Below, in pieces: positions 8,238-39,016 of a DNA stretch of 64,000 nucleotides. A model generated the notes under the pieces. The model searched no databases. It saw only the letters and a list, made by a program, of their open reading frames with translations, and was not told the origin of the DNA. Location: the NCBI RefSeq assembly GCF_056712565.1, contig NZ_CM160072.1. One strand, given 5' to 3'. The stretch's first letter is position 1, and each line of letters opens with the position of its first letter. A program made the translations under genes and the position numbers.

Positions 8238-8783
8238 TTATTTTTTCTTGCCGCTGGAACGAGGACCTTTCTTTGCTGCCTCCTGCGGTACATCAGATTT
8301 TGTAGGTTTAGTGTTTTCTATTGAGGGTTTAACTGGTTGATGCTGCTCCACGGACTTCAGCGTTTCATCAGTGACATCCATACAGGATGCGCTGATTGAC
8401 GTATCAAGGTTAACCACCGGGAATGTCTGTGAAGGCGCGTTTTCAGCCTGCAGTGTCGGTTGTGCAGCAGGCACTTCAGGTTGAGGTTCTGCGACGCCGG
8501 CGGTCACTTTAGAGTGAATAATCTGCTCGATATGCTGCGCGGTGCGGGCGATCACCTTATGGGCATACACCTCGCCAACCCGGCTTGCCGCGCTGATGGC
8601 TGCCGCTACCGCCGCGTTAATTGCGCCCACTTCCCCTTCCAGCTTCACGGTCACCATCCCGCCGCCTTTCGTCAATTCATAGCCTACCAGACTAACGTTA
8701 GCGGATTTCATTGCGGCATCGGCGGCTTCTACCGCCGCAGACATCCCGACGGTTTCGATTAAGCCTAAACTTTTCCCAGACAT
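8238..8783 (-). CDS. BMC-H microcompartment shell protein with a long Pro/Gln/Glu-rich C-terminal extension (PduK-like architecture)
   Basis: N-terminus MSGKSLGLIETVGMSAAVEAADAAMKSANVSLVGYE is a canonical BMC (PduA/EutM) domain; AGGAGA RBS before the ATG at 8783; ~90 aa tail follows. Confidence 0.8.
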   Translation of the reverse strand: MSGKSLGLIETVGMSAAVEAADAAMKSANVSLVGYELTKGGGMVTVKLEGEVGAINAAVAAAISAASRVGEVYAHKVIARTAQHIEQIIHSKVTAGVAEPQPEVPAAQPTLQAENAPSQTFPVVNLDTSISASCMDVTDETLKSVEQHQPVKPSIENTKPTKSDVPQEAAKKGPRSSGKKK

Positions 8784-8827: not shown

Positions 8828-9979
8828 TTAACGTCCAACGTCTTCGTATAATAGCGCCGCTTTGTCCGTAACTTCCCACGGAAAGCTGTCGCGACCAAAG
8901 TGACCATAGCAGGCTGTTTTACGATAGCGGGGGACCAGCAGATCAAGCGTAGTAATGATGCCGAACACGCTAAGATCGAAATGGCTGTTAACGCCTCTCA
9001 GCAACGCTTCAGATGACACTGTTTGTGTACCGAAGGTGTTAATCCTGACGGAAACAGGGCGGGGCAGGCCGATGGCCCATCCCAACTGGACTTCACAGCG
9101 TGAGGCAAGCCCAGCGGCGACGATGTTTTTCGCCACATAGCGAGCAGCGTAGGCGGCGGAACGATCGACTTTCGACGGATCTTTGCCTGAAAACGCGCCG
9201 CCGCCATGGCAAGCCGCGCCGCCATAGGTATCAACAATAATTTTACGCCCCGTTAGCCCGCAGTCACCCACCGGCCCGCCAATCACAAAACTGCCTGCAG
9301 GGTTCACCAGAAAGCGGGTTTGTGGTGTGAGCCAGTGCGAAGGCATCACAGGTTTAACAATTTCTTCGATGACCGCTTCCCGTAGCGCGTCCAGAGAAAC
9401 GTCAGGGCTGTGTTGGGTAGACACCACAACGGTATCTACTGAATGAACACGATTATCCTGATAGCGCAGGGTAACCTGGCTTTTGGCATCAGGGAGTAAA
9501 AATGGTAACCGTTGGGATTTACGCAACTGCGCCTGGCGCTCCATCAGACGATGGGCGTATACCAGCGTGGCGGGCATCAGTTCCGACGTTTCATCACAGG
9601 CGTAACCGAAGGTGATGCCCTGATCGCCCGCCCCCAGTTCTTCCATCGAGTGGCCGCGAATGCCTTCAGCAATATTGGCGGACTGTTTGCCAAGGATATT
9701 TAATACACAGCAGGTATTGCCATCAAACCCCAATCGCGAATGGTCGTAACCAATCTCTTTTATGGTGTTGCGGACAATCTTCTCAATATCCACGGCGGCA
9801 TGGGTAGATATTTCTCCGGCAACAATAGTGGCACCAGTTTTCACCAAGCATTCACAGGCAACCTTACCCCACGGGTCCTGTAGGAGTATCGCATCCAAAA
9901 TGGCATCAGAAATTTGGTCCGCCATTTTATCGGGATGCCCTTCGGCAACGGATTCGGAGGTAAACAGGTAATCGTTCAA
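8828..9979 (-). CDS. S-adenosylmethionine synthetase paralog (MetK-like), apparent TTG start
   Basis: Full-length collinear MetK signatures ([33 protein letters not shown]) but clearly diverged from housekeeping MetK and not in the metK genomic context. Confidence 0.85.
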
Positions 9980-10107: not shown

Positions 10108-11163
10108 TCACCGTGTAATTCCCGGGGACACGACTTTTCGATAATCAGAGGGGGTCATGCCAGTATCTTTTTTGAAGATGCGGCAAAAATAGTTTGAATC
10201 CTGGTATGCCAGTTCCAGCGCAATGGTATTTACTTGTAAGTCACTGAACCGCAATAACGATTTGGCGATAGTAATTTTACGCGTGGCAATATAGTTCGAA
10301 AACCCGAACCCGGTAATTTTCTTAAAGGTACGGCTCAAATAGCAGGCACTGACAAACGATTTTGCTGCCACGTCATCGAGCGTCAAGTTTCTGAGAATAT
10401 TTTTCTCAATATGGAATTTCGCTCGTTCGATAAAATCGATATTGCCTGTATAGCCTTTTAATGCGTAATCAAACAGCTCTTCGCTAATGGTCAGCAGGCT
10501 GATCATGATGCGGAAATAGCGGCTTTCCATCATGCCATACTGGTTGATGTCTTTGATCAGCGCGGCGACTTTACGGTTAGTCGGCATTAACTTTTCCCCT
10601 TTGGCGGTCATATACTGGCTAACTATTTCCAGAAAATCGATCACGTCTTTGCGCTTATCCTCTTCTATCATATCCACCGGACAGGCACCGTTGAGCGTGT
10701 CAAAAATAAAGTTGTGCCACTGGGTGTAATCGCAATCGTCTATCATGGCGAACACTTTCTGTTTTAGGGCGCGGGATTTTTCATTTTCTCCTTCGTCGAA
10801 TGCTAGGGTTTTTTTGATGGTGTCGGTCAAGATACATTTTTTCACTGGTTTGAGCAGATAATCATCCACTTTAAGGTTGTACATGCTGCGTACTATATCA
10901 AAGTCATCATTGGCCGTGATTACGATGATTTTAGTATCGCTGTTTTTTTTCTTCAGATATTCAATCACCTGTTTACCGTTCGGCAACGGAATATTAATGT
11001 CCACTAAGATCATATCGATTTGACTCAGTTGGTCAATTAAGTGAATCGCTTTTTTACCGGTTGAGGCTTCATGGATCGCAGCGTTTTCCACACACTGGGA
11101 GATAATCTGCCGCAGGGATTCTAATTCGATGGGCTCATCTTCAACGATAACAATGGTAAACAT
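10108..11163 (-). CDS. Two-component response regulator, receiver + AraC-type HTH output domain
   Basis: N-terminal receiver (IVEDEP..., DMILVDINIP, KIIVITAND) and C-terminal AraC HTH (SACYLSRTFKKITGFGFSNYIATRKI). Confidence 0.8.
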   Translation of the reverse strand: MFTIVIVEDEPIELESLRQIISQCVENAAIHEASTGKKAIHLIDQLSQIDMILVDINIPLPNGKQVIEYLKKKNSDTKIIVITANDDFDIVRSMYNLKVDDYLLKPVKKCILTDTIKKTLAFDEGENEKSRALKQKVFAMIDDCDYTQWHNFIFDTLNGACPVDMIEEDKRKDVIDFLEIVSQYMTAKGEKLMPTNRKVAALIKDINQYGMMESRYFRIMISLLTISEELFDYALKGYTGNIDFIERAKFHIEKNILRNLTLDDVAAKSFVSACYLSRTFKKITGFGFSNYIATRKITIAKSLLRFSDLQVNTIALELAYQDSNYFCRIFKKDTGMTPSDYRKVVSPGITR

Positions 11164-11179
11164 ATGTCCTTTTCCTGTA

Positions 11180-12442
11180 TCAGGCTTCCTGCATTGGGAA
11201 CCGAAGTTTAATGGTTGTACCCATCCTGGGTTTGTTAGGGCTCATTATTTCCAAGCCATAGCTCTCGCCAAATAACAACTTCAATCTATTTTTTATGTTG
11301 TTAATGCCAATACTGCCTTTTTGCAATTTTTGGTCGCCTGATAAAATGCGATTAATGGTATCTGGTGCGATGCCGTCGCCATTGTCAGTGACTTCAATAA
11401 TCACGTTCAGGCCATCGTCCGTGGCACGGATCAGCAGATGACTATTGCTATCCCTTGGCTCCACTACGTAGTTAAAGAAGTTTTCCACCAGCGGTTGCAG
11501 GATCAAAAACGGGCAGACTACATCCAGATATTTTTCCGGGATATCGCACAGGTAATCGAAACGGTCTCTCATACGCACTTTTTGGATCGACATATAGTTG
11601 TTGACGTAATTTATTTCATTACGCAGAGTAATCAGGCCGTGACTATTTTTACGTAACAAATAGCGCATCATGTCAGAGAAATCGTGCACCATTGTTTCGG
11701 TACGCTGCGCATCTTCAAGAAAAGCTAACCGGCCAATGGTATTTAATACGTTAAATAAAAAGTGTGGATTTATCTGATAAGAGAGCGCTTTAAATTCAGC
11801 TTCATGTAGTGAGCGTTCTATCTCTACACGTTTTCTTAACTCATTAGCCAGTGCAAGATCCTTTTTACGAAGTTCGCGTTGGATATTATTGGTGTGCGCT
11901 TGTTCGACCAGATAAGACGATACGTGTAGTAACGTCGAGGCAGTAGACTCAAAACGCTCATACGGCATGCGACGTGTATTCTGGTGCAAATTAATTAACC
12001 AAGGATTATCTTTCCAGACGTCATTATTATTCAGAATATAGGAAATGCTCTGTTCTTTCTCTTCTTCGACTTTTACCTGACCGGAAATAAAAGCACCGAG
12101 ATAATGATCGTTAATCATGATTGGGACAGCGAATTCGACAAAACCGCAGTGGCAGCGATAAACCACCGGTTTGCGAGCGTGCATCGCGGCACGGCCACCA
12201 GCGTTGTCGCTTTCATAACAGTGGTGCGCCAGTGTCGGGTTGAGACGCGAACGCATGCAGAAGTCTGAAAAACCGCTGGGCTTAGTGACCGGGATACCAT
12301 TCTCATCCACAACCACGAGCGCGATCATCATTGATTTTGAAAAGTTGTCCTGCAGGGTCTGAAGGCGTTTTACATCCAAAAACTCATTTAATTTGTATTT
12401 ATTCTTCATACTTTCAGCCTGCATTTTTAAAAACATAATCAT
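11180..12442 (-). CDS. Sensor histidine kinase with N-terminal PocR ligand-binding domain (LytS/YesM-type kinase core)
   Basis: PocR-like block (FSDFCMRSR...HHCYESD...[15 protein letters not shown]...GQV), then His-kinase region ([12 protein letters not shown]) and HATPase (DNGDGI...G.G). Confidence 0.8.
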
Positions 12443-12674
12443 ATATTTATAAATAATTTGTCGCGAAAAAATTGAAATGGATCACAGCAACAAAAACAGC
12501 TCCGGCTCTGAAAGTAATGCTTCGGTTATTTGCAAGGGATACTCCTTTTCAAACCTTGCTGAACCAGTGCAGATACACAGGGAAACGTATACCAGAACTG
12601 CCACAATACAAACGCCAGTTACTGGCGATACGAATGGAATGACGAGGCAGTCTGTCAGAAAGCCCCACATGAAC

Positions 12675-14515
12675 GATCACCACCTACATAGGAGGTGTTT
12701 TAAAATTGATCGAGTAGGAGGCGGGATCACTCCCGCCGTCCTCTCACACCACCGTACATGCGGCTCCGCATACGGCGGTTCATGTTAACACTGGAACTGC
12801 CTCTGCTGTTCCAGCAGTGATATCAGACCCTGCCTGCTGAACCACGCATTCTTTATCGCCTGATTCATATGGCTTGACTCTGAGTTCCACCATGGCCCGT
12901 GGTTGTTGTACGCTGAGATCATCGCCCTGTCCTTACTCAGTCCTGCTCTTTGCAGGTTCTTTGCCCGGGTTAGCGGTCTCTTCCACTGCCGCTACAACAA
13001 GCAACGCAGTTTCCGTTTGATCCAGCCATCCAGCTCCTCCAGCACTCCTCTGACCTCCGTCAGCCTGAAGTAGCTTATCCATCCACACAGCACTGGTGTC
13101 AGAGCATTGATTGTCGCTTTCACTGATTTGCTCCGGTTTCCCGTCGTCAGACTGTGGACTTTCTCCTTCAGCCTGTTCACGCTCGTCAGGGCTATCTTCA
13201 GCTTCGCCTGTTTGTGCCATGTCACACTGTACCCGAGGAACTTCCGATCCCACGGGCGCGCCACCGCGCTCTTCTTCTCATTCACCTTCAGTTTGTTCTC
13301 CACGAACGCCCTGATGTTCTTCAGCAGATGGTCGCCCGCTTTCCGGCTGCTTACGTAGATGTTGCAGTCGTCTGCGTAGCGGCAGAAGCTGTGTCCACGA
13401 CGCTCCAGTTCTTTATCCAGTTCATCCAGCAGGATGTTCGACAGTAACGGCGACAGTGGGCCGCCCTGCAGCATGCCCGCCTGCCGTTTCTCCCTTTGCC
13501 CGTCTTTAACCATTTCCGCTTTCAGGTAGCGGCGTATCAGTCACAGCACCCGCCTGTCCTTTATCGTTCTGGCCAGACGCGTCATCAGGAGTCTGTGATC
13601 CACCCGGTCGAAGAACTTCTCCAGATCCATATCCACCACCCACCGTTTGCCACCCCGTATGTAACGCTGTGCCTGTTGCACCGCCTGCTGGATAAGCCTG
13701 TCCACCACCGTCGGGATGCCTGAGGTTCTCACGCCGCCATCCGGCTTCGGGATATCCATCCGGCGTATTGTCCGCGGCTGGTAGTTTCCGTCAATCAATG
13801 CCTGCCTGACGCTGCGCCAGTTCTTCTTCAGCCACGGTTTCAACTCCGCCACGCTGAGGTTATCCACCCCCGCCGTGCCTTTGTTTTCCACCACGCGCTG
13901 ATAAGCCAGCATCAGGTTTTCTCTCGTTATCACCGCTTCCATCGTCAGCGGCACTTCCGCTTTCGTTTGCCCACCCGCCGCCGTGCTGATTTCAGCGCCA
14001 TCATGCAGCCCTGACGGATACTGTCCGTCTCCTCTGCCGCTGGTCGCAGTGGCCTGCGCTTGTGCTTCATTAATCATCATCGGGTTCGGATGTCCTAATC
14101 ACAGTTAATCATGTTCGGCCCTTCATGCTGCCGGTTTTGCAGCACTACTACGGCGTCGGCTGACTTCTGCCGCCCCATCCCGGCGCCTCACGGCGCCGGT
14201 AGCACACTGGCAGGGCGACAGATCTCCCGGGGTAATTCACGCGACTTTCCTGCTTATGCCTGTCGGCTTTACGTCACAGCGTTCCGTGTGAGTATCGGGC
14301 TTTGGTGATTAGTGCCACCTTACCCTGCTGCGCCGCCTTAACCGCTTCCTGTTCGTCAGGCCAGCATTTTGCATCCAGCTTCCTTCAGATTTCACCTCGC
14401 GATGAACACCCTTGCCTTCCGCTAACACTTCCCCTCACCGGGTGTGTGGAGGACTTTCACCTCTTAGTCGTTCTTCTGCCACCACAGTTGAAGAACAGCG
14501 CCAGTCACGGCGCAC
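12675..14515 (-). mobile_element. Group II intron (~1.8 kb) inserted just downstream of the microcompartment operon terminator; ends approximate
   Basis: Minus-strand GTGCG at 14515..14511 8-9 nt after the terminator T-tract; RT/maturase ORF inside; domain V-like hairpin at ~12745..12775 (CCGTATGCGG / CCGCATGTACGG with 2-nt bulge) and GNRA-capped helix after it. Confidence 0.65.
12784..14080 (-). pseudogene. Group II intron reverse transcriptase/maturase, disrupted by one frameshift (~13515-13540) and one in-frame TAG (12992-12994)
   Basis: RT blocks 0-2 in ORF 13541..14080 (AGVDNLSVAEL, IPKPDGGVRTSGIPTVVDRLIQQA, DMDLEKFFDRVDH); RT4-5 in ORF 12992..13513 (QGGPLSPLLSNILLD, FCRYADDCNIY); maturase tail continues in the same frame past the TAG (QWKRPLTRAKNL...LISLLEQQRQFQC). 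Confidence 0.7.
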
Positions 14516-14519
14516 ATAA

Positions 14520-14552
14520 CAAAAAGCCAGCAGGCAGACACTGCTGGCTTTT
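14520..14552 (-). terminator. Rho-independent terminator of the microcompartment structural operon
   Basis: GCCAGCAG-loop-CTGCTGGC stem followed by TTTTTGTT on the minus strand, 14 nt after the stop at 14566. Confidence 0.6.
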
Positions 14553-14565
14553 TGTTATGGCGGGA

Positions 14566-15471
14566 TTAAAACAGGGGAACCAAGGTAAATAATCCAATGG
14601 TCGCCAACAGATTAATCATCGTGGTCATAATGGTGATGACCATCGCCGGCGGGTCAATATGTGTATCGCCGTGGATCAGGAAGATACGCGACATCAGTTC
14701 ACCCAATATCGCGCAAATTATGCCAACGATAGCAGCCCAAATCAGGCTACCTGATGGCACCGCTACCAACGCGGCAGGCAGCGAAATATGATGTGACACC
14801 GGTACCTGAGTATTGAAATGCAGGAAAATCAGTGAGAACGCGGAAATACCAAACGCCAGCAGCGCGCCGTTGCCGCCAAACTTCAGGCCTAAAAAGCCTG
14901 CCATCAAGCCAATACCCAAGCCCAGCACGGAAAGCTGCGGAATGCGGCTATGGTAAGGTATCCAGCACTTATCCTGCGGCGGATAGCAGTGACGAATTCC
15001 CTGCTCCGGTTTTCCAAACAGGCCAGTTTTACCGAAAACCAGACGCGAGACCACGCCAGAAATCACCACGGTTAGTGCCACGGTATCGGTCCAAGCATTG
15101 CCGGACGGGAAGGCCGGAATCTGGTTCAACCCCCAGGCGATGATGTAACCAACCGCCCCAAAAACCCCGCCTACCAGCAGCACATCGTAAGCCGCCAGAC
15201 CGCTCAACCCGGCAGTGATATCACGCCCGGAACCCAGCTTGCCTTTCTTCGCTGCATACGCCGTCGCCGCAACCCCAGCGGCAAAGCCGCCGGTGTGCGG
15301 GCCAAACAGTCCAAACGGAAAAGTAATAAAGTCCGATGATGCTCCGGTAATAATTTGCACTACCGTCATGGCGATAACCAGAAGCCCAACGAATTCAAAC
15401 GCCGCCAGCGCGCCAACAGCCGCACCAAATATGCCGCCGCCGAAGGCAACTACAATATCTAAGCTATTCAT
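14566..15471 (-). CDS. Gly-rich polytopic membrane protein, last gene of the microcompartment operon; putative substrate/product facilitator of unknown family
   Basis: 301 aa with ~8 hydrophobic Gly/Ala-rich segments; no NPA (aquaporin) or obvious EutH/FocA signature. Confidence 0.5.
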   Translation of the reverse strand: MNSLDIVVAFGGGIFGAAVGALAAFEFVGLLVIAMTVVQIITGASSDFITFPFGLFGPHTGGFAAGVAATAYAAKKGKLGSGRDITAGLSGLAAYDVLLVGGVFGAVGYIIAWGLNQIPAFPSGNAWTDTVALTVVISGVVSRLVFGKTGLFGKPEQGIRHCYPPQDKCWIPYHSRIPQLSVLGLGIGLMAGFLGLKFGGNGALLAFGISAFSLIFLHFNTQVPVSHHISLPAALVAVPSGSLIWAAIVGIICAILGELMSRIFLIHGDTHIDPPAMVITIMTTMINLLATIGLFTLVPLF

Positions 15472-15607
15472 CTAGCTTACCTCTGTAATTAAATCAAATG
15501 ACAATATAAGTAATGCAGATTGCTCTATATTTTTAAAATTGAAATAGTATTCATGCGTAACAAATAAACAAGCGCAGCATTTTTTCGCACTCTTATTACA
15601 TCTTTTA

Positions 15608-16525
15608 TTAACCGCCGATATGGCAGTTAAAACCTAAGGATTCAACCATTGCTTTTAACTCTGCCATTTGGGCTTCTTCGATACTTTTTGTATCGCCCAT
15701 CGGATACTGGCGACCAAGCAGATTATATTTATTTTCACCGAAGCTGTGATAAGGCAATAAGTGAATGGTATCGACGTTCTGCATCAGGCGGGCGAACTCC
15801 GCAATATTATGGATTTCCTGCGAATTGTCATTCACTCCTGGGATCACAGGAATACGCACAACCACTTTGGTTAAAAAGGAGATGCGCAGCAGATTCTCCA
15901 GAATCACTCTGTTATTCACGCCGGTGTTGCGCTCATGGATTTCCGGATCGATGGCTTTAATATCGGTCAGAGCAAGATCGACATAGGGAAATATCTCATC
16001 AATCACCGCTTTGGTGGTGAAGCCGCTTGTTTCAATAGCGGTGTGCCAGCCTTTGGCTTTACAGGCTTTAAGCAGCTCGCGGGCAAATTCCGGCTGCGCC
16101 AGCGGTTCACCACCGGACAGGGTAATCCCGCCGCCTGAACGCCGGTATAAATTCTCTTCTTTTTCCAGTTCGCGCATCACTGCCGTTACCGACATACGCT
16201 TGCCCTTCATTTCCAGCGCACGGGTAGGGCAAATCTCAGTACATTTCCCACACTGAATACAGCGGTCGCGATTGATAAACCAGGCATTAGTAGTGGAAAG
16301 AGCCTGTTGTGGGCAAGCATCAATACATTTTCCACAGCGGATGCAATCATTCTTTTTAAATAATAACTCTGGGCTGTGACGTTGTGATTCAGGATTACTA
16401 CACCATTTGCAGGACAGCGGGCAGCCTTTAAAAAAAGGAATGGTTCGAATGCCTGGACCATCATGCAAAGAATAGCGTTGAATATTAAATATGACGCCTT
16501 CGGTTTCGTACTCAACTTTATTCAT
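15608..16525 (-). CDS. Glycyl-radical enzyme activating enzyme (radical SAM, with ferredoxin-like insert)
   Basis: GCPLSCKWCSNPE radical-SAM CxxxCxxC site near the N-terminus, plus two additional Cys clusters (CIRCGKCIDACP, CIQCGKCTEICP) typical of non-PFL activases. Confidence 0.85.
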   Translation of the reverse strand: MNKVEYETEGVIFNIQRYSLHDGPGIRTIPFFKGCPLSCKWCSNPESQRHSPELLFKKNDCIRCGKCIDACPQQALSTTNAWFINRDRCIQCGKCTEICPTRALEMKGKRMSVTAVMRELEKEENLYRRSGGGITLSGGEPLAQPEFARELLKACKAKGWHTAIETSGFTTKAVIDEIFPYVDLALTDIKAIDPEIHERNTGVNNRVILENLLRISFLTKVVVRIPVIPGVNDNSQEIHNIAEFARLMQNVDTIHLLPYHSFGENKYNLLGRQYPMGDTKSIEEAQMAELKAMVESLGFNCHIGG

Positions 16526-16633
16526 AACATCACTCTATATTTACCAGATGAATTACCTTTTCAGATAAAAGTAACAACCAGAAGTCGTGGAGAAAGTAAC
16601 GGGCTATATATTGATACATAGCCCGTCTGGTAT

Positions 16634-19186
16634 TTACGACAGTTGTTGCTCAGTACGGCTGATTATGTCGTCCTGAACTTCTTTCGCTAAAACTACCCAC
16701 TGGGCGCTATAGCCCGCAACGCGTACCACCAGATCCTGATGTTGCTCAGGATTTTTCTGGGCTTCGATCAAAGTGTTGCGGTCGATAACGTTAAATTGAA
16801 CGTGCATCCCTTTCTTATCGAAGTAGTGACGTATCAGGCCGCTGAAGTTGCGCAGACCGTTCTCGCCAGCCAAAGAAGACGGCAGGAATTTCTGATTATA
16901 GAGCGTACCGTTGGAGGCGATAAAGTGATCCAGTTTGGCAACTGAGTTGGCTGCGGCGGTTGGGCCAAGGGTGTCTTTACCCTGACGTGGAGATACGCCA
17001 TCCGCCAACGGCTCTTTCGCCAGACGGCCATCCGGCAGTGCGGCAACGTCTTTACCAAACAGCACGTTCGCAGACACCGGATAGATACCAGCCTGGAACT
17101 GGCCACCGCGCGGGTTGGTATATTTCTCAACTTCCTGGCAGTAGATCAGCGCACATTTACGCGCTACTAAATCCACGTCATCGATGTCGTTACCGAAGCA
17201 CGGTGTGTTTTCCAGAATACGACGGATCTCCTCGTGACGGGACATAGTGCCGGATTGCACCGGTGCTGCACTGCCGGAAGTCAGCTGGCGATAAACTTCG
17301 TTTTTAATCGCTGCCGGATCCAGCGCGCCATGCTGTTCAATGATGCGTTTCACCACATCGTAGATATCCTGCTCGTTGAGCGAGGATTTCGCCGCTGGAG
17401 TGTGCGGGTTCGCACCCACCGGATAACCGAAGTTGGCGTCCAGTGCGCTTTTCAGTTCGCTCAAAGACAGTTTACGATCTTCGAATACCTGTTTCTGGAT
17501 GGCATAGACGGAGTCGCCGGTATCGGCTACGCCGAATGCTTGCGGCCCAGTAAAGTTGTAAATCGCCCCGCCTTCCTGGAGAGATTTACCACGGCCGATA
17601 CAGTCGTCGACCAGTGCTGATAGGAACGGCAGCGGGCAGCGTTCGCCGTGGGCAATATCCACGCTGTTACAGGCTTCAACCAGTTGATGAACGAAGTGCG
17701 CCATCTGTTTCTGGAACGCGGTGTAGAAGTCCTCCATGCTGGTGAACTGAGTCAGTTCGCCAGTCACTGGGCCTAGCTGTTTATTGCCAACGCGACCGTT
17801 GTTCAGGGTGATTTCCAGCACTTTTGCAACGTTAAAGAACGCGGCGTCATGCCAGCCCTCGGTGCGATGCGGTGCCTGCGGCTCTACGCAGCCGATGATA
17901 CAGTAATCACGCGCATCACGCAGCGAAATGCCACGGTTCTGCAGCGCCGGGATGATTACTTCATCGTTGTACATTGCCGGAACGCCCAGGCCCATACGCA
18001 CCAGCTCGCAAGCGCGATACAGAAACTCATCCGGAGTACCCTGCCATACGCGGATTGAGAAGGATGGCTGCGGCAGACGCACATGGGCAGTCGCTTCCAT
18101 ACACATGTAGCTCAGATCGTTAGTTGCGTCGCGACCGTCTTCTGTCTGGCCGCCACAGCACAGGTTCTGGAACACTGCGTAACCGGCAAACGCCTGGGCA
18201 GAGACTTCGTCACGCGTTTTGTTAATGTCGTTAAGCTTGATCCAGCAGCAATCCACCAGTTCCTGCGCGAATTCACGCGAGATAGATTTGTCCGACTCCA
18301 GATACGGGTACATATACTGGTCGAAACGCCCCGGGGAGATAGAATGACCGCTGGATTCAATCTGTAACATGCTCTGAATAAACCAGAATGTCTGGCATGC
18401 TTCCCAGAATGTGGTAGCACCGTATTCCGGCACGCGAGTACAGTTTTGAGCAATCTGCTCCAGTTCGCGTTTACGGGTCGGATTGCTCTCCTGCTGCGCC
18501 AGACGGGATGCTTCTTCAGCGTAACGATGGGCGAAACGGATCGCTGCGTTATAACTGATCAGCACCGCATTATAGAACTGTTCTTTCTTTATATATCCTG
18601 GTTCAGTGCGATCTAATGATTCCAAGGCACGGCTAACTTCATTAATGATACCACGGAAACCAATTTTCAGCACTTTACCGTAGTCAACACTGACATGACC
18701 GACGCCCCCGAAGAAGTAGTTACCAACAGTGAATACACCGCTCGCCATACTCTCTTTAGTGCCTTCTGACATGTAAGATGCCGCCAGAGCACTGGTAGTT
18801 TTACCCGGCCAGTATTTAAATGCTTCATGAAGCTCCTGAGCAGTCTTTTTCGGGATAACAAACGGGTCGGCAATACGGTGTTCCATAGTCTCAAACTCTT
18901 TTTCCACCCAGTCGTAGGAGAACTCAGGGCAGATTTCAGTTGAGCGAGGATTAATAGTTACCGCTCCAACGATTAATTCGTCTGGGCGAATTGTTACCGG
19001 TAATTGGTTAAAGATTTTTTCCACCACTTTAGCACGACGCATAATCGCGGGCAGTTGTTCTGTTTCTTTATATGCTTCGGTTGCTAACACCGCGCGTTCT
19101 GATTCCACATACGGCTTCGCCGTCAGGATCATATTTCTCAGTCTTACAACACGGTCTGTCGGATTAGAAAAGCCTTTCTCTAACAT
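16634..19186 (-). CDS. Glycyl radical enzyme, 850 aa; most likely B12-independent 1,2-propanediol dehydratase (choline TMA-lyase not excluded)
   Basis: C-terminal glycine-radical motif RVAGYSA; active-site GCVEP loop; size and neighbours (activase, PduL, PduP-like, kinase, Fe-ADH, shell genes) fit the dehydratase/lyase class rather than PFL. Confidence 0.85.
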   Translation of the reverse strand: MLEKGFSNPTDRVVRLRNMILTAKPYVESERAVLATEAYKETEQLPAIMRRAKVVEKIFNQLPVTIRPDELIVGAVTINPRSTEICPEFSYDWVEKEFETMEHRIADPFVIPKKTAQELHEAFKYWPGKTTSALAASYMSEGTKESMASGVFTVGNYFFGGVGHVSVDYGKVLKIGFRGIINEVSRALESLDRTEPGYIKKEQFYNAVLISYNAAIRFAHRYAEEASRLAQQESNPTRKRELEQIAQNCTRVPEYGATTFWEACQTFWFIQSMLQIESSGHSISPGRFDQYMYPYLESDKSISREFAQELVDCCWIKLNDINKTRDEVSAQAFAGYAVFQNLCCGGQTEDGRDATNDLSYMCMEATAHVRLPQPSFSIRVWQGTPDEFLYRACELVRMGLGVPAMYNDEVIIPALQNRGISLRDARDYCIIGCVEPQAPHRTEGWHDAAFFNVAKVLEITLNNGRVGNKQLGPVTGELTQFTSMEDFYTAFQKQMAHFVHQLVEACNSVDIAHGERCPLPFLSALVDDCIGRGKSLQEGGAIYNFTGPQAFGVADTGDSVYAIQKQVFEDRKLSLSELKSALDANFGYPVGANPHTPAAKSSLNEQDIYDVVKRIIEQHGALDPAAIKNEVYRQLTSGSAAPVQSGTMSRHEEIRRILENTPCFGNDIDDVDLVARKCALIYCQEVEKYTNPRGGQFQAGIYPVSANVLFGKDVAALPDGRLAKEPLADGVSPRQGKDTLGPTAAANSVAKLDHFIASNGTLYNQKFLPSSLAGENGLRNFSGLIRHYFDKKGMHVQFNVIDRNTLIEAQKNPEQHQDLVVRVAGYSAQWVVLAKEVQDDIISRTEQQLS

Positions 19187-19234
19187 ATAAAACTCCCGAA
19201 TATATTTTGTTAACCTTGCGGAGATGCCAGGGTA

Positions 19235-19810
19235 TTAATGAATAATGCTAGTGCCCATTTGAGTAATAAAGTGACGTAATATTGCTGGATGCCCCATCCA
19301 GGTAGTCGCGGTTATTAAATTACCATCCACAATGGCTTCATCATCTGCGGCAGTGACCCACTGGCCACCCGCCATTTCCACTTCCGGTTTTACCGTAAAA
19401 TATCCCGTCAGTTTCCGGCCTTTTAATACCCCAGCAGCGGCCAGAATTTGTGGGCCATGACAAATTGCAGCAACAGGTAATGTTAAATTCATCGCGTAAT
19501 GCACGATATCCAATACTGACTTATTTAATCGCAAGTATTCCGATGAACGCCCACCAGAAATATAAACACCACTATATTCCTGTAACCTTATGTCATCAAA
19601 TGATGCAGTTAATCTAAAAAGATGTCCGGGTTTTTCGGTGTAGGTCTGATCACCTTCAAAATCATGAATCGCGGTTTTAATAAACTCGCCGGTACGTTTT
19701 CCCGGACACACTACATCCACTCTGAAACCTAACATGTTTAATGCCTGCCATGGCACCATGACTTCATAGTCTTCAGAGAAATCGCCTGTGATAAGTAATA
19801 TCTTCTTCAT
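19235..19810 (-). CDS. DJ-1/PfpI-family protein (class I glutamine amidotransferase-like fold)
   Basis: MKKILLITGDFSEDYE start and the conserved nucleophile elbow AICHGP; the ORF track start at 19945 is an upstream extension overlapping the preceding gene. Confidence 0.7.
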   Translation of the reverse strand: MKKILLITGDFSEDYEVMVPWQALNMLGFRVDVVCPGKRTGEFIKTAIHDFEGDQTYTEKPGHLFRLTASFDDIRLQEYSGVYISGGRSSEYLRLNKSVLDIVHYAMNLTLPVAAICHGPQILAAAGVLKGRKLTGYFTVKPEVEMAGGQWVTAADDEAIVDGNLITATTWMGHPAILRHFITQMGTSIIH

Positions 19811-19820
19811 AAGCGGACTC

Positions 19821-20120
19821 TCAAAACTGGTTATCGTCTTCCTCAATGATTCGCATGGCTTCATGCACCGCCGCGACTTCGCCAAAAATGGCCAATGTGG
19901 TGATATGCTGAGGGCAACTGCCAAAGATTTCTGATACCACCACATTGGCGCTTTTACTGGCTACGTCGGCATAAAAATAGAGATCCGGAACCGGCAGTAT
20001 TAACAAACCAATGGCGTCGATGCGAATCAAATCCAAACGCGAACGAAACTCCCCGGGCATACGCCGTTTCAACATAGCCAAAATATCCGGGGTCGGTGCG
20101 TTTATGATTCGTTTTTTCAT
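19821..20120 (-). CDS. Circularly permuted BMC-H shell protein (PduU/EutS-like)
   Basis: IDAIGLLILPVP...ADVASKSANVVV...LAIFGEVAAVHEAM parallels the PduU/EutS core (AIGILTITP...CDIATKSGAV...GAVVLTGDVSAVEYAL). Confidence 0.65.
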   Translation of the reverse strand: MKKRIINAPTPDILAMLKRRMPGEFRSRLDLIRIDAIGLLILPVPDLYFYADVASKSANVVVSEIFGSCPQHITTLAIFGEVAAVHEAMRIIEEDDNQF

Positions 20121-20143
20121 CTTTAAGTCACCCTTCGCGATAG

Positions 20144-21661
20144 TTAGCGAATATTCAGCGCTTCAACCATTACACAGCGACGACGGCGTGCAAACGAACG
20201 CGCTGACGTAAGTCCCTCGCCGGTCGGTCCGGCAATCGTAAAGGTGGCATGCCCTTCACCGCCCACCCCCAGCCCTGCATAAGAGGGACCATTTTTAACA
20301 AAGATGGTGGTCTGGATCAGGCGCGCCATTTTGGTCAGCTTTTCGACGTTGGTGGAGTGCATAACCGCGGTATGACGATTGCCGTGCTCCACTTTCACCG
20401 CCAGCTCAATGGCTTCATCAACATTGTCTACGCGCACCACCGGCAGGACCGGCATCATCAGCTCATGCACCACAAACGGATGTGTTTTCTCAGCCTCAAT
20501 TAAGATGACTTTGATATCGTCGCCAACCTGGATTCCCAGTTGTTGCAGGATATAGCGCGCATCTTTGCCGACAAAGGCGGTATTCGGCCCAGTGCCTTTT
20601 TCATTAAGCACCAACGATTGCAGTTGTTGACTTAACTTCTTATCGCACAACAGATAGGCACCGCTTTTCTTCATGCAGTGAATCAGATAGTCCGCTACCT
20701 GGTTCACAACAATCACCTCTTTTTCCGCCACGCACGGCAGGTTGTTGTCGAAGCTACAGCCCTTAATGATGTCGCGGGCTGCTTTTTCGATATCCGCCGT
20801 TTCATCTACCACAGCTGGCGGGTTACCTGCGCCTGCACCAATCGCTTTTTTACCTGATGACATCACGGTTTTCACGATGGCTGGACCGCCAGTCGCTACC
20901 AGCATGTTGATACGTGGGTCGTTGATCAGGACGTTGGTATTGTCGATGGACGGTTTGGTCACCGTTACCACCATGTTCGCCGGTGCGCCCAACTGGGCAA
21001 GCTTGTTGTTGATCAGCTCAACCGCGTACAGCGACACTTTGCGCGAGCGCGGATGTGGACTGAACACCACAGTGTTGCCTGCCGCCAGCATGCCTATGCT
21101 GTTGTTGATAATGGTTTCGGTCGGGTTAGTCGTTGGTGTAATCGAACCAATCACTCCGAACGCAGAGTATTCGATCAACGTTAAACCCCCGTCTCCGGAA
21201 ACCGCGCTGGTGGTCAGATCTTCGATACCTGGCGTTTTCAGCGCTGCGACGCGGTTTTTGATCAGTTTGTCCTCGTAATTCCCCATGCCGGTCTCTTCCA
21301 CCGCCATACGGGAAAGGGCACACAGCACATCTTCCTGCAGGAAGACATCGCGAATGCCATTGATAAACGAGGCGCGGTCTTGCATAGAACAGTGGCGATA
21401 CTGTACCTGTGCCAAGACGGCGGCGGAAATCGCCTCATCCATGGTATCGAATGCTCCAGTGCTAGCATTCGCTACCTTCGCTACCTGAGAGATCGCACTG
21501 GCGTCGCGCACGGAAGAGTGCTGCGCCAACGCCTTAGCGACAATTTCATCCAACCCGTCGACCCGCGCTGCTTCTGACGTGGCGGGAGCTTCATCCGGTG
21601 TTGCTTTGGTGAATTTGCTCAGGATGGTCGAGACAGCCTGAGCGATTTCAATATCATTCAT
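20144..21661 (-). CDS. CoA-acylating aldehyde dehydrogenase (PduP/EutE-like) with N-terminal extension (putative encapsulation peptide)
   Basis: Aldehyde-DH fold with catalytic Cys region (NNLPCVAEKEV) and GxGxxG-like dinucleotide site; ~40 aa N-terminal extension before the catalytic core. Confidence 0.8.
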   Translation of the reverse strand: MNDIEIAQAVSTILSKFTKATPDEAPATSEAARVDGLDEIVAKALAQHSSVRDASAISQVAKVANASTGAFDTMDEAISAAVLAQVQYRHCSMQDRASFINGIRDVFLQEDVLCALSRMAVEETGMGNYEDKLIKNRVAALKTPGIEDLTTSAVSGDGGLTLIEYSAFGVIGSITPTTNPTETIINNSIGMLAAGNTVVFSPHPRSRKVSLYAVELINNKLAQLGAPANMVVTVTKPSIDNTNVLINDPRINMLVATGGPAIVKTVMSSGKKAIGAGAGNPPAVVDETADIEKAARDIIKGCSFDNNLPCVAEKEVIVVNQVADYLIHCMKKSGAYLLCDKKLSQQLQSLVLNEKGTGPNTAFVGKDARYILQQLGIQVGDDIKVILIEAEKTHPFVVHELMMPVLPVVRVDNVDEAIELAVKVEHGNRHTAVMHSTNVEKLTKMARLIQTTIFVKNGPSYAGLGVGGEGHATFTIAGPTGEGLTSARSFARRRRCVMVEALNIR

Positions 21662-21721
21662 CTTTAAATTCCTTACTACTCTTCATCTACCGACCGCGCC
21701 GCGTGCATCGTCATCAGATGC

Positions 21722-22507
21722 TTAGATATATGGCGTCGTGGTGGATTTAATTTCCACCGGATCTAACGTGGAGAGCAGTTGTAGACCGACTTCACGCGCG
21801 GCAATCACCGCCTGACGTACTGCACCGGAATCACCGGAGAAGGTGAAGATCACTTCGTTACTAAAGCTGGTGCCTTGCGACGGGCTGGCATAACCCACCG
21901 GGTCAATCACGGCGGATTTCGCCGCAGCGTCGGCAATCACTAGGCCAATCGCCGCAGGCGAGGCACAGGTCATCCCGAAGGATTTACCAATCGGCGCACC
22001 CAGCGCTTTATTCAGCGCGTAGCTGGCACGAGCGGTGTACTGGAATTCAAGATGTCCGGCTGACGAGCCATAAACGTCACCCATGGTGCGTTCAATTTCA
22101 GACAGCGCCACTTCAACCGCACGCCTGACGTCGGAAACATCAGACGCACCAAAAATAATTAAGCAACCGTGTCCGCCACCTCCTTCGGTATCGCGGGCCA
22201 GCTCAATAGAAATAATTTCGCTGTTGGTTGCTTTAATCGCTTCGTCAGCCGCAAAAATTTGCGGGCCTGCGCCAGTACGTGCGCCAAGAATACCGATAGA
22301 GCGATATTTCTTGTCGATATTCATGACTTCATGCAATTGATTATCAACATTGGCAATCACTAGGCCGATAGTGTGGCCCAACGCAGTGCCGACAAATTCC
22401 GTAATACCGCAACCAGCGAAATTTGCTGCTGTTTTAGCTTCCGGTGAGATATCGGTTTGTTTATTCATTACGTCAGATATAATCTGCTCAACAAGATTAT
22501 CTCTCAT
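21722..22507 (-). CDS. BMC-T tandem-domain shell protein (PduB/EutL-like)
   Basis: 261 aa with two BMC-like repeats, Gly-rich loops (TEGGGGHGCLIIFGAS) reminiscent of PduB. Confidence 0.75.
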   Translation of the reverse strand: MRDNLVEQIISDVMNKQTDISPEAKTAANFAGCGITEFVGTALGHTIGLVIANVDNQLHEVMNIDKKYRSIGILGARTGAGPQIFAADEAIKATNSEIISIELARDTEGGGGHGCLIIFGASDVSDVRRAVEVALSEIERTMGDVYGSSAGHLEFQYTARASYALNKALGAPIGKSFGMTCASPAAIGLVIADAAAKSAVIDPVGYASPSQGTSFSNEVIFTFSGDSGAVRQAVIAAREVGLQLLSTLDPVEIKSTTTPYI

Positions 22508-22528
22508 GATCAGTATCCTTTATTGTTA

Positions 22529-22810
22529 TTAACCGATAGCCTTCGGTAGAATTTTTTCCACCTCAATGTGTGGGCGTGGAATAACATGTACGGAGACCAG
22601 TTCTCCCACTTTACTCGCAGCAGCGGAGCCCGCATCTGTCGCGGCTTTCACTGCGCCAACGTCGCCGCGAACCATCACAGTCACCAAGCCGGAGCCGATT
22701 TTTTCATAACCCACTAGGGTCACGTTGGCAGATTTCACCATGGTATCTGCAGCTTCAATTGCAGAAACCAGACCTTTCGTTTCAACCATTCCTAATGCTT
22801 CTTGTTGCAT
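22529..22810 (-). CDS. BMC-H shell protein (PduA/EutM-like), ~93 aa
   Basis: [57 protein letters not shown] is the canonical BMC hexamer sequence; ORF-track start at 22861 is an upstream extension. Confidence 0.85.
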
Positions 22811-23094
22811 AACGACCTCAATATTTCCGATAGAAAGAAAACGTGCACAGAGGAATAGCAATCTACGGATTCACCCATGTGCATTAATTATTTAATTATC
22901 ATAATGCTAAGGTTATTCAGACAAAATGTTTTGCGCGTCAGTGGGACTATCTTGCTTTTGCATTCCCGCAATTGACAATAAAATCCACCCGAGGTTTGTA
23001 ATAAAAGATCTGCGTTTAAATTTCCTTGCAAAATAGCCCCGCTCTGAATAGCAATCATAATTACTGTTAAAACTGTCGTATTTTTGCCAATTAG

Positions 23095-24291
23095 TTATGC
23101 CGTGCGGGCAATCTCCGCTGCATCTATAGCAATCATTTTTTCTTCATTGGTTGGGATGACCGCAATCTTCGTGGTGTCGGTTTTAGAAATCAGTCCGCTA
23201 CGTCCGCCGAACAGCTGCTGGTTACGTTCTTTATCCAGTTCCAATCCCAGCGCCTGAAGGCGTTGCACGGTAAGTTCTCGAATTAACGCCGAGTTTTCGC
23301 CAATTCCACCGGTGAAAATCAGCGCATCGAAGCGTTTAAGCGAGGTCACGTGGCCGCCGATATGTCGTGCGAGACGATGTACTAACACGTCGATGGCTAA
23401 CGCTGCCCGTTCGTGGCCCTCATCACGCGCCTGCTGAAGGGTGCGGCAATCGCTGGATAAGCCGGAAATCCCCATTAGGCCGGACTGGTTATTGAGCATT
23501 TTGTACAGCGTGTCGAACGTTTGACCTGTGCGTTTCGCCAGATATGCGACGACACCAAAATCAAGATCCCCGCAGCGCGTGCCCATTACCAGCCCTTCCA
23601 GCGGGGTCATACCCATTGAGGTGTCAATGCTCGTGCCGTTTTGCACCGCACATAGCGATGAACCGTTGCCCAAGTGGGCAATCACGATGCCATGATCCGC
23701 CGGGTCGAGATCTAGTGATGCAAGCGCCTCGGCGGCAATATAGCGGTGAGATGTTCCGTGAAAGCCGTAACGTCGCACCATATAATCTTGCTGGAACTCC
23801 AGCGGGATCGCATAGGTGTAAGCAGCCGGAGACAAGGTCTGGTGGAACGCAGTATCGAACACCGCAATATGCGGCAACGCGGGCAACAGAGCCCGAGCCG
23901 CTTCAATACCAATCAGGTTGGCAGGGTTATGCAAAGGGGCCAGCACCGACAGCGCGCGGACTTTTTCGATCACATCATCGGTAACCAGTACTGATCTTTT
24001 GAAGTCGCTGCCGCCATGAGCCACGCGGTGCCCAACGGCGTTGATGGCTTCCAACAGTTGCTGTTCGTCGAGCTTCGCGAAGAGCACTTTGAGCGCATGC
24101 TGATGGCTGGCGTCATCCAGCGCGACAGTGGATTTATGGCCGTCTCGGTCTTTAAACGTTATGACAGCATGATCAATACCCAGTCGTTCCGCTAGGCCCG
24201 ACAGCAACGGCTGATCTGCATCCTGAGGAATGACGGAGAATTTCATTGATGAGGAACCACAATTAATCACTAATACACAAGCTAAAGACAT
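23095..24291 (-). CDS. Acetate/propionate kinase (AckA/PduW/TdcD family)
   Basis: LVINCGSSSMKF N-terminus and downstream ASKHGxT-family blocks (GFHGTSHRY, HLGNGSS); ORF-track start at 24402 overlaps the upstream gene, true ATG at 24289-24291. Confidence 0.85.
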   Translation of the reverse strand: MSLACVLVINCGSSSMKFSVIPQDADQPLLSGLAERLGIDHAVITFKDRDGHKSTVALDDASHQHALKVLFAKLDEQQLLEAINAVGHRVAHGGSDFKRSVLVTDDVIEKVRALSVLAPLHNPANLIGIEAARALLPALPHIAVFDTAFHQTLSPAAYTYAIPLEFQQDYMVRRYGFHGTSHRYIAAEALASLDLDPADHGIVIAHLGNGSSLCAVQNGTSIDTSMGMTPLEGLVMGTRCGDLDFGVVAYLAKRTGQTFDTLYKMLNNQSGLMGISGLSSDCRTLQQARDEGHERAALAIDVLVHRLARHIGGHVTSLKRFDALIFTGGIGENSALIRELTVQRLQALGLELDKERNQQLFGGRSGLISKTDTTKIAVIPTNEEKMIAIDAAEIARTA

Positions 24292-24319
24292 GATGCCCCC
24301 TGAAATGGACTGCAAAAAA

Positions 24320-24817
24320 TTAACGGGTTGTTGTGAGGGGATAACGCAGAACGCTAAACTGCGCCATCGCCTGGCGGGCGATGAGCATATCTTCCTCAAC
24401 ACTGCCGCCGCTGATGCCGATGCCGCCTAGTAAGCGCCTGCCCGACCAGCAGGGAAAACCACCGCCGAAGCAGCAGATATCTTTTTCTTTCTCAAGGCCG
24501 TACAAATCACCACCCGGCTGTACCAGCGTTGCCAGTTCGTGAGTTGGCATTTTGAGAGCTACCGCGGTCCAGGCCTTTTGTGGTGCCAAGGTATGGCTGA
24601 CCAGCAGGGCGTTATCCATGCTGAAGAAAAAACGCTGCTGACCGCAGGCATCCACTAGGCTAAAAACGATCGATACATTGCTGGACTGTGCTATTTCCCG
24701 GACCAACTTTGCCAGCAGTTCACTGTCCTCCAGGCTCAGCGACATCCGGAGTTCCGGTAACTGCGTGGCAATAGCCTCGTTAATCCAGTTGTCGAGTGAA
24801 GCCTCATTCGCAGACAT
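24320..24817 (-). CDS. GlcG/DUF336 (PduO C-terminal-like, haem-binding family) protein
   Basis: 165 aa with the Gly-rich C-terminal block (GGGFP...GGIGISGGSVEEDMLIA) typical of DUF336/GlcG. Confidence 0.6.
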   Translation of the reverse strand: MSANEASLDNWINEAIATQLPELRMSLSLEDSELLAKLVREIAQSSNVSIVFSLVDACGQQRFFFSMDNALLVSHTLAPQKAWTAVALKMPTHELATLVQPGGDLYGLEKEKDICCFGGGFPCWSGRRLLGGIGISGGSVEEDMLIARQAMAQFSVLRYPLTTTR

Positions 24818-24844
24818 AAGTATTCCTCAGCGTACGCGCCGCTA

Positions 24845-25114: not shown

Positions 25115-25125
25115 ATTTCCTCCGG

Positions 25126-25830: not shown

Positions 25831-25834
25831 TGAT

Positions 25835-26593: not shown

Positions 26594-26647
26594 TCGCCGC
26601 TGTCAATCAGCGCGGCCAATTCGTGAAATCGGCAGTTTTCGGGGCTG

Positions 26648-39009: not shown

Positions 39010-39016
39010 AAAAACC

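Follow-up and report, generated by a model that had tools for sequence, protein, structure and literature searches.

A PocR-domain sensor kinase and an AraC-type response regulator as the probable two-component switch of the Escherichia coli Grp microcompartment

The grp locus and its enzyme

The window analysed here is a single stretch of 64,000 nucleotides of E. coli chromosomal DNA from contig NZ_CM160072.1 (RefSeq assembly GCF_056712565.1). It contains two adjacent minus-strand genes, grpP (11180..12442; RefSeq WP_001329690.1, annotated as 420 aa), which encodes a cytoplasmic sensor histidine kinase, and grpQ (10108..11163; RefSeq WP_000494233.1, 351 aa), which encodes a response regulator with an AraC-type output. 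A sequence-only reading of this DNA had placed a kinase gene and a regulator gene at 10108-12442, and the two open reading frames lie exactly there. RefSeq already calls the genes grpP and grpQ, with WP_001329690.1 named "propanediol utilization sensor histidine kinase GrpP". The pair, together with its inducer and phosphorelay, is already known, being named in RefSeq and studied in E. coli strain CFT073 (Lundin et al. 2020, J Bacteriol 202:e00017-20; Li et al. 2025, Nat Commun 16:607). The GRM3 feature list of Axen et al. 2014 already includes this sensor pair, and PocR-kinases are listed there for PDU1D.

The grpP and grpQ DNA in the window is 100% identical to that of 535 complete E. coli genomes, and the pair is present in 538 of 5,426 complete genomes. 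The window and CFT073 share a single GrpQ accession, GrpP differs from its CFT073 counterpart at a single residue (419/420 identical; E162K), and the grpA promoter is identical to that of CFT073 over 168 bp. The CFT073 genes (c4545/c4546) also have the same gene order, including an intron remnant between grpO and grpP, and apart from the strain background there is no substantive difference between the two pairs. The stretches queried between positions 6800 and 14700 of the window are 100% identical to strain ZJ3920, among others, and the ZJ3920 gene coordinates agree with the window ORFs up to approximately 33 kb.

The metabolosome that the sequence-only reading had associated with these genes is real. 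Based on Pfam, NCBIfam and RefSeq names, the regulated operon grpA-grpO (14566..28592, minus strand) encodes an ADH, PduL, an EutJ-like protein, a flavoprotein, BMC-P, a GlcG-like protein, propionate kinase, BMC-H, BMC-T, an AldDH, a further BMC protein, a DJ-1 protein, a glycyl-radical diol dehydratase, its activase and a permease. The same three sources identify grpR (SAM synthetase; 8828..9979, minus strand) and grpS (BMC shell protein; 8238..8783, minus strand) downstream of grpQ in the same orientation, which places grpPQ between grpO and grpR-grpS. Directly after grpO, RNA folding predicts an intrinsic terminator hairpin, AUAACAAAAAGCCAGCAG...CUGCUGGCUUUUUGUUAU (14516..14558, minus strand), with a folding energy of -34.9 kcal/mol (z=-9.0 against shuffles). 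As read from the sequence, grpPQRS is a transcription unit apart from grpA-grpO, behind this strong predicted terminator.

Between the grpO terminator and grpP lies a decayed group II intron (GUGCG...CGAU; 12709..14515, minus strand; Rfam RF02001, RF01998 and RF00029). Its RT/maturase ORF is in two pieces, and the remnant lacks 87+6 nt compared with an intact copy that is 96% identical. The remnant is outside the sensor, yet it parts the two transcription units.

The glycyl-radical enzyme, GrpM, bears on the substrate. It falls in the diol/glycerol dehydratase clade, outside the choline lyases, which agrees with the diol substrate that the sequence-only reading had favoured. GrpM scores 1063 and 964 bits against glycerol and diol dehydratases, respectively; overall, its dehydratase matches in the PDB range from 964 to 1662 bits, compared with approximately 470-511 bits for PDB CutC matches. 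Its score against the NCBIfam CutC equivalog model is 555 bits, well below the cut-off of 1050, and by these scores the grp locus is not a choline-utilisation (CutC-type) GRM locus. That the pair senses another glycyl-radical substrate (choline or glycerol, both of which the sequence-only reading had listed as candidates) rather than 1,2-propanediol (1,2-PD) is hardly credible. The B12-independent glycerol dehydratase 1r8w is indeed a slightly better match to GrpM than the Roseburia diol dehydratase 5i2a is; however, GrpM is far from CutC, the locus carries a propanediol-pathway set (PduL, propionate kinase, AldDH and ADH), and growth on and induction by 1,2-PD are described in the published genetics, to the extent that these are recounted in PMC11724981.

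Domain architecture of GrpP and GrpQ

Domain searches bore out the architecture proposed in the sequence-only reading, namely a kinase with a PocR-type N-terminus and a LytS-type core, together with a receiver-AraC regulator. The PocR sensory domain (PF10114; 11897..12385, minus strand) spans residues 20-182 of the 420-aa form of GrpP (E=1.4e-44), scoring 152 bits against a gathering cut-off of 23.9 and covering 161 of 162 model positions. It is followed by a His_kinase domain (PF06580; residues 215-295; 11558..11800, minus strand; E=1.8e-27; 95.9 bits against a cut-off of 25.2) and then by a HATPase_c catalytic domain (residues 313-418; 11189..11506, minus strand). PF06580 is the LytS/YehU-type dimerisation/phosphoacceptor domain. 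The phospho-accepting histidine of GrpP, H227, lies within the motif QINPHFLFN and is invariant in an alignment of 39 homologues, as are the N box (E-N box) and the DxGxG box of the catalytic domain.

No hydrophobic or transmembrane segment was found in GrpP (the highest Kyte-Doolittle 19-residue mean is 1.32), which indicates that GrpP is a cytoplasmic sensor. A membrane-embedded N-terminal sensor, whether 5TM-Lyt or a YesM-type transmembrane region, is likewise absent. GrpP therefore has only the kinase core of the LytS/YehU/YesM type, and its sensor is the cytoplasmic PocR domain. The true start of GrpP is probably M12 at 12409, giving a protein of 409 aa, because this is the length of nearly all GrpP homologues (compared with the 420 aa annotated here) and because a conserved promoter element precedes the annotated ATG by only 28 nt.

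GrpQ consists of a receiver domain (Response_reg; residues 4-116; E=2.3e-20) and a C-terminal HTH_AraC/HTH_18 domain (residues 266-343), both identified with Pfam. The receiver residues D9/E10, D55, T83 and K105 are all present, and the set of phosphorelay residues in the pair is complete (H227 and the N and G boxes in GrpP; D55, T83 and K105 in GrpQ). The best NCBIfam match of the GrpQ HTH is PocR itself (E=6.8e-23), and the solved structures 6swl and 3lsg (YesN) are among the top matches to its receiver and HTH.

GanS- and YesM-type kinases are membrane proteins that sense extracytoplasmic signals. The GanS/GanT and YesM/YesN systems of Firmicutes sugar utilisation share with GrpPQ the PF06580 kinase core and the REC-AraC regulator architecture, and GanS (6swj) is the only solved kinase that was found by sequence (E=4.9e-27), as well as the best match by fold. 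Unlike these kinases, GrpP is soluble and has an N-terminal PocR domain.

Sequence searches returned no solved structure for a PocR sensory domain. Because all Foldseek matches of a full-length GrpP model were either kinase cores or PAS-kinase chimeras, with high rmsd, the sensory domain was modelled alone. The models suggest that the PocR domain has a GAF/IclR-effector-like fold, with a long helix linking it to a LytS/YesM-type DHp-CA core. In all PocR domains examined, whether of kinase-type, AraC-type or other proteins, the three cysteines that correspond to Cys62, Cys75 and Cys97 of GrpP are invariant, and D68, H87 and D92 (409-aa numbering) are nearly so.

The PocR protein of Salmonella enterica is a one-component AraC-family activator of pdu/cob that responds to 1,2-propanediol. 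Its sensory domain is homologous to that of GrpP (NCBIfam PocR model, GrpP residues 21-228, E=1.3e-31) and both systems control a propanediol microcompartment. GrpPQ, however, divides sensing and DNA binding between two proteins that are linked by a His-Asp phosphorelay. We rejected the assignment of either protein as a PocR orthologue (NCBIfam NF047788), as GrpP scores 110 bits and GrpQ 81 bits against an equivalog cut-off of 500.

Promoters of the two transcription units

A CRP-like site, TGTGATCCATTTCAAT, is located upstream of grpP (12471..12486, minus strand). It is the sole match within the 64-kb window (0.21 expected), and its TGTGA half lies at 12482-12486. Each related locus in Escherichia, Buttiauxella, Dryocola and Vibrio has exactly one such site, which always precedes the 409-aa start by 61-69 nt. 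A -10-like TATAAA lies approximately 19 nt downstream of the site, and transcription is predicted to start near 12436-12440. This arrangement suggests that grpPQRS probably has its own, CRP-dependent promoter, predicted to be of class II.

Upstream of grpA, a predicted extended -10 element, TGTTAGGTT (28638..28646, minus strand), of the grpA promoter (PgrpA) is conserved in 10/10 aligned sequences, and the start site is predicted near 28631-28633. The -35 position is occupied by GTCCAT (28661-28666), which matches the consensus at only 1/6 bases. Phylogenetic footprinting revealed a conserved 40-bp block, AAAACAATACCGCAAAATAATCCTTCACCTGCACAAACAT (28672..28711, minus strand; approximately -79 to -40 of the predicted promoter), which is shared by the enterobacterial genera Escherichia, Atlantibacter, Citrobacter, Buttiauxella and Dryocola, and partly by Vibrio. 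The core of this block has seven matches in 100,044 species genomes, six of which are directly upstream of grpA orthologues. The seventh, in a Treponema MAG, has no adjoining grpA gene and was dismissed as a chance match. A second conserved block, GGACTTTTTTGC, is found slightly further upstream (28719..28730, minus strand; approximately -98 to -87 of PgrpA). The footprint, taken together with the weak -35, fits an AraC-type class II activator, and the 40-bp block abutting the weak -35 is most likely the site that GrpQ would occupy, which makes it a candidate GrpQ operator.

A simple sigma-70 scan gave nothing convincing at PgrpA or at the grpP promoter (PgrpP), so the two proposed promoters rest on conservation. 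A search upstream of grpP for a block resembling that of PgrpA, as expected under autoregulation, gave nothing better than shuffles. An FNR box in PgrpA was considered as a source of anaerobic-only induction and was rejected; inspection by eye yielded no more than a TTGAC-N3/4-ATCAG-like string, which is poor, not conserved and located upstream of the conserved region.

Signal, circuit and evolutionary distribution

In CFT073, 1,2-propanediol no longer induces the grp genes under anaerobiosis once either grpP or grpQ is deleted (Lundin et al. 2020, as quoted in PMC11724981). The proposal of the sequence-only reading that the pair is the substrate sensor of the metabolosome thus holds, and was already known. 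GrpP autophosphorylation and phosphate transfer to GrpQ have been demonstrated biochemically, grpP and grpQ are co-transcribed, and grpR is lowered in the mutant with 1,2-PD under anaerobic conditions, which reproduces the loss of induction for this gene; 1,2-PD is effective only under anaerobiosis (Li et al. 2025, PMC11724981).

We consider it very probable, taking all parts of the statement jointly, that GrpP/GrpQ is the two-component system dedicated to regulating the Grp (GRM3-type) microcompartment of E. coli, acting from 1,2-PD through GrpQ~P on grpA-grpO. The signal would be 1,2-propanediol inside the cell under anaerobiosis, acting on soluble GrpP; we infer that it binds the PocR domain directly. 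GrpP would autophosphorylate on H227 and the phosphate would pass to D55 of GrpQ. GrpQ~P would then activate the weak-(-35) promoter upstream of grpA via its AraC-type HTH, most likely by contacting the conserved block at approximately -79..-40, and grpA-grpO would be switched on. grpPQRS would run as a separate unit behind the grpO terminator, probably from its own CRP-dependent promoter.

The distribution of related pairs bears on what is being sensed. Orthologous pairs of a PocR-domain kinase and a REC-AraC regulator are found in GRM3 loci of Rhodospirillum, Vibrio, Buttiauxella and Dryocola, with the order grpPQRS conserved in the latter three. In Sedimentibacter, a pair whose kinase is 47% identical to GrpP adjoins a B12-dependent PduCDE locus. 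The presence of the sensor pair beside both GRM3 and B12-dependent PduCDE loci suggests that it tracks the substrate and not the enzyme. In Clostridium butyricum, glycerol is converted to 1,3-propanediol by a pathway that is not known to use a microcompartment. DhaS/DhaA of this species is a PocR-domain two-component system beside the B12-independent glycerol dehydratase of the 1,3-propanediol operon (as cited by Axen et al. 2014). As in the grp case, a propanediol BMC locus of Acetobacterium woodii is accompanied by a two-component pair, Awo_c25930/25920, which precedes the B12-dependent pdu cluster. The regulator was found to bind PpduA as well as its own promoter, and 1,2-PD was the best inducer of the reporter (PMC7593272). 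This locus and the PDU1D-type loci, which have a PocR-domain kinase (Axen et al. 2014), differ from grp in that their signature enzyme is a B12 diol dehydratase.

Besides 1,2-PD and the grp genes, D-serine has been reported as a further signal, and fimS as a further target, of GrpP/GrpQ (Li et al. 2025, PMC11724981). D-serine at 0.02-1 mM raises grpPQ mRNA and GrpQ phosphorylation, and footprinting places GrpQ~P on a 29-bp site in fimS; the mutant shows attenuation in the mouse bladder, and the D-serine/fim effect does not depend on oxygen (PMC11724981). The response of the same cytoplasmic sensor to a chemically different signal counts against our explanation, and these observations would fit a pair that is primarily a host-cue (D-serine) sensor for type 1 fimbriae via fimS, with the microcompartment link being secondary. 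We regard such a primary role as unlikely. The pair sits inside propanediol microcompartment loci and is inherited along with them in genera that are free-living or associated with plants and in alpha-proteobacteria without the fim switch, and it also accompanies B12-dependent pdu loci. Furthermore, nothing resembling the fimS footprint was found in the grp promoters: a search of the window allowing up to 3 mismatches gave no match, and when aligned without gaps to PgrpA and to PgrpP the footprint scored, at best, lower than the average of shuffled sequences, which also makes it unusable for predicting the grp operator. Li et al. 2025 (PMC11724981) report neither direct binding of D-serine nor a ligand-binding assay of the GrpP PocR domain. 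A D-serine/fimS role is compatible with an added, lineage-specific output that did not replace the ancestral role in the microcompartment.

The anaerobic-only effect of 1,2-PD also counts against regulation by 1,2-PD as we propose it, as plain ligand binding does not account for it. GrpP could instead sense a downstream or accompanying cue (propionaldehyde, or a redox/thiol or metal-centre state) via the three PocR cysteines, and not 1,2-PD, a reading that we find distinctly improbable. One-component PocR proteins of the AraC type (28/100 of the set) show the same invariance of the cysteines, and Salmonella PocR responds to 1,2-PD aerobically too. The A. woodii paper also describes pdu expression as occurring with or without oxygen (PMC7593272). 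The anaerobic requirement could instead sit in uptake, in CRP/ArcA-type control, or in mRNA or protein stability. A more speculative idea, to which we give little credence, is that the PocR domain is itself a Cys3-based metal or redox centre (with D68, H87 and D92) that senses small molecules with vicinal O/O or N/O donors by chelation. If true, this would explain both how one cytoplasmic sensor can answer 1,2-PD and D-serine and why the diol response depends on oxygen.

To the known role of GrpP/GrpQ in propanediol-dependent regulation, the present analysis adds the PduCDE-flanking pair, the separate predicted grpPQRS unit with its CRP-like site, the 40-bp block and the three invariant cysteines. 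The 40-bp conserved block provides a precise target for locating GrpQ binding at the grpA promoter. In practical terms, the pair represents a well-defined diol-responsive switch that is present in approximately 10% of complete E. coli genomes and is reported to be enriched in uropathogens.

Architecture of the GrpPQ sensor pair

ORF calling identified two neighbouring genes on the minus strand at 10108-12442, exactly where the sequence-only reading had placed a PocR-domain sensor kinase and an AraC-output response regulator, and Pfam searches confirmed both assignments. The kinase gene grpP (11180..12442, minus strand) encodes 420 amino acids with a PocR domain (PF10114, residues 20-182, E = 1.4e-44), a His_kinase domain (PF06580, residues 215-295, E = 1.8e-27) and a HATPase_c domain (residues 313-418). 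The regulator gene grpQ (10108..11163, minus strand) encodes 351 amino acids with a Response_reg domain (residues 4-116) and an AraC-type HTH (residues 266-343). Across 39 homologues, with identity down to 43%, GrpP shows an invariant phospho-accepting His (H227, within QINPHFLFN), N box and DxGxG box; in GrpQ the acidic pocket is present together with D55, T83 and K105. GrpP lacks a hydrophobic segment, so sensing takes place in the cytoplasm. The NCBIfam PocR model matches the N-terminal half of GrpP and is also the top match for the GrpQ HTH, with neither protein reaching its cut-off. On the basis of these matches, GrpPQ looks like a PocR-type regulator that has been split by a phosphorelay.

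Scanning all 1.84 billion representatives yielded 4,328 PocR-domain proteins. Three cysteines, C51, C64 and C86 of the 409-residue form of GrpP (C62, C75 and C97 in the annotated 420-residue numbering; domain at 11897-12385, minus strand), are invariant in all architectures, in 134/134 diverse PocR domains and in 100/100 of a second set that includes 47 PF06580 kinases and 28 AraC one-component regulators. D68, H87 and D92 (409-residue numbering) are conserved at 90% or more, and a fourth cysteine, C99, is confined to the GrpP clade. The conserved residues may form a metal or redox site. We found no discussion of the invariant residues in the literature searched.

Substrate and neighbourhood of the grp locus

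The catabolic operon grpA-grpO (14566..28592, minus strand) of this glycyl-radical microcompartment locus encodes an alcohol dehydrogenase (ADH), PduL, a EutJ-like chaperone, a flavoprotein, a vertex protein, a GlcG-like protein, propionate kinase, shell proteins, an aldehyde dehydrogenase (AldDH), a DJ-1 protease, the glycyl-radical diol dehydratase GrpM, its activase and a permease. GrpM scores 1662 bits against 9rco (an unnamed glycyl radical protein), 1063 bits against 1r8w (B12-independent glycerol dehydratase) and 964 bits against 5i2a (diol dehydratase), but only about 470-511 bits against choline lyases, and its CutC model score is far under the cut-off. These matches support a diol rather than choline as the grp substrate.

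The grpH gene is intact here (22529..22810), whereas RefSeq annotates a frameshift in its CFT073 reference copy (comparison locus L018, 11812-12095). GrpO (14566-15471) is a 301-residue multi-pass membrane protein without a Pfam or NCBIfam match; relatives (L005/L007, L006/L008 and L009) instead have a MIP-family (PduF/GlpF-like) channel. In Buttiauxella and Dryocola the channel gene closes the catabolic operon, and in Vibrio it lies upstream of grpA in divergent orientation. As in some E. coli, the locus of strain 4/2-1 (L001, 17428-18872) retains intact grpPQ but is truncated inside grpR and lacks grpS, with the remainder joined to an spt/acyl-carrier/LPS gene block. Downstream of grpS, 5648-7881 holds what is left of an efflux module, namely an RND permease truncated at its N-terminus, a small gene of the TetR family and two short AraC/HTH fragments; these resemble decayed island cargo. 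The same island carries defence-type genes at 31754-40345, near IS1/IS3 remnants; in strain ZJ3920, whose coordinates are offset by 45 nt beyond about 33 kb, the annotation gives a KAP-family NTPase, a Qat anti-phage system (qatC, qatD) and a SLATT-domain protein beside a nucleotide-binding-domain protein.

Promoters, start codon and transcription units

The region 28593..28810, proposed in the sequence-only reading for reporter fusions, holds the conserved elements of the grpA promoter. Aligning the DNA upstream of grpA in ten sequences from Escherichia, Atlantibacter, Citrobacter, Buttiauxella and Dryocola, and in part Vibrio, revealed three conserved blocks and no conservation past about -100. 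On the minus strand, these are GGAyTTTTTTGC (28719-28730), the 40-bp AAAACAAyaCCGCAAAATAATCCTTcACCTGCACAAaCAT (28672-28711) and a predicted extended -10, TGyTAGgTT (28638-28646); the -35 position has a non-consensus GTCCAT. The core of the 40-bp block has seven matches in 100,044 species genomes, six of them directly upstream of a grpA orthologue. We propose this block as a candidate GrpQ operator, because conserved sequence directly adjoining a poor -35 resembles an AraC-type class II activator site. It has no similarity to the published GrpQ footprint on fimS.

Upstream of grpP, a CRP-like motif, TGTGATCCATTTCAAT (TGTGA-N6-TCAAT; 12471-12486, minus strand), is the sole match in the 64-kb window (0.21 expected). 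It occurs once per related locus in Escherichia, Buttiauxella, Dryocola and Vibrio, in each case 61-69 nt upstream of the start of the 409-residue form, and resembles a CRP half-palindrome in class II promoter placement. This suggests catabolite control of sensor expression from a putative grpPQRS promoter. The annotated GrpP start (12409-12442) is probably wrong and the real start M12 at 12409, because nearly all homologues have 409 residues and a conserved promoter-like element precedes the annotated ATG by just 28 nt; the predicted class II position would leave the 420-residue start upstream of the transcript.

The grpPQRS genes, which include a SAM synthetase (grpR, 8828..9979, minus strand) and a shell protein (grpS, 8238..8783, minus strand), form their own unit in Vibrio, Buttiauxella and Dryocola, where they converge with the catabolic operon; in E. 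coli they are co-oriented with it. An intrinsic terminator with a very stable hairpin and a U-tract (14516-14558, minus strand; -34.9 kcal/mol, z = -9) lies 3' of grpO. Inserted 5 nt past the U-tract, between grpO and grpP, is a decayed group II intron of 1,807 nt (14515 to 12709, minus strand; Rfam RF02001, RF01998, RF00029) whose RT/maturase ORF is broken in two (12992..13513 and 13541..14080). It lacks 87+6 nt present in an intact, 96%-identical copy in E. coli strain M18, which likewise lies just behind a terminator hairpin. The grpO-intron-grpP stretch is nearly complete in at least 447 of the 538 genomes that have grpPQ, and is partially deleted in some.

The sensor pair in published work and in other genera

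Over its 2,335 bases, the grpPQ DNA shows 100% identity to its top ten matches among complete E. coli genomes, and identity is at least 99% in 535; 538 of 5,426 carry it. RefSeq already names grpP ("propanediol utilization sensor histidine kinase") and grpQ. In the CFT073 grp locus (4306029-4326385) the GrpQ accession and the 168-bp sequence preceding grpA are the same as in the window, with a single substitution (E162K) in GrpP. Li et al. 2025 (PMC11724981) demonstrated that GrpP autophosphorylates and passes the phosphate to GrpQ and that the two genes are co-transcribed, and found that with 1,2-propanediol (1,2-PD) grpR is down in the mutant anaerobically and not aerobically. As quoted there, Lundin et al. 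2020 reported that deletion of grpP or grpQ prevents anaerobic 1,2-PD induction of the grp genes. Li et al. also describe a second signal, D-serine, that acts independently of oxygen, and a second target, fimS; we found no ligand-binding assay in that paper. Axen et al. 2014 list the pair as a feature of GRM3 loci, with PocR-kinases also in PDU1D. Given these results, with Lundin et al. as cited by Li et al., the proposal of GrpPQ as the likely substrate sensor of the metabolosome was correct and had already been tested.

GrpP homologues sharing all three domains number 2,880 at E <= 1e-20. PocR-kinase and REC-AraC pairs occur in glycyl-radical microcompartment loci of Buttiauxella and Dryocola (83-84% identity), Vibrio salinus (74%) and Rhodospirillum rubrum (46%), and in Sedimentibacter (GCA_032006665.1, L004 10001-18886) such a pair, 47% identical, sits immediately upstream of a microcompartment locus with B12-dependent PduCDE. 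Presence beside both locus types indicates that the pair tracks substrate rather than enzyme chemistry, which independently supports diol sensing; one sensor type thus serves both diol dehydratase chemistries. This agrees with A. woodii, whose regulator binds PpduA and whose promoter is most responsive to 1,2-PD (PMC7593272).

The grpPQ feature is thus real, correctly read and already known, and of little interest as a discovery. Its useful yield is a set of precise points open to test, namely a candidate operator, a CRP-type unit separate from the operon, the start codon and three invariant cysteines.
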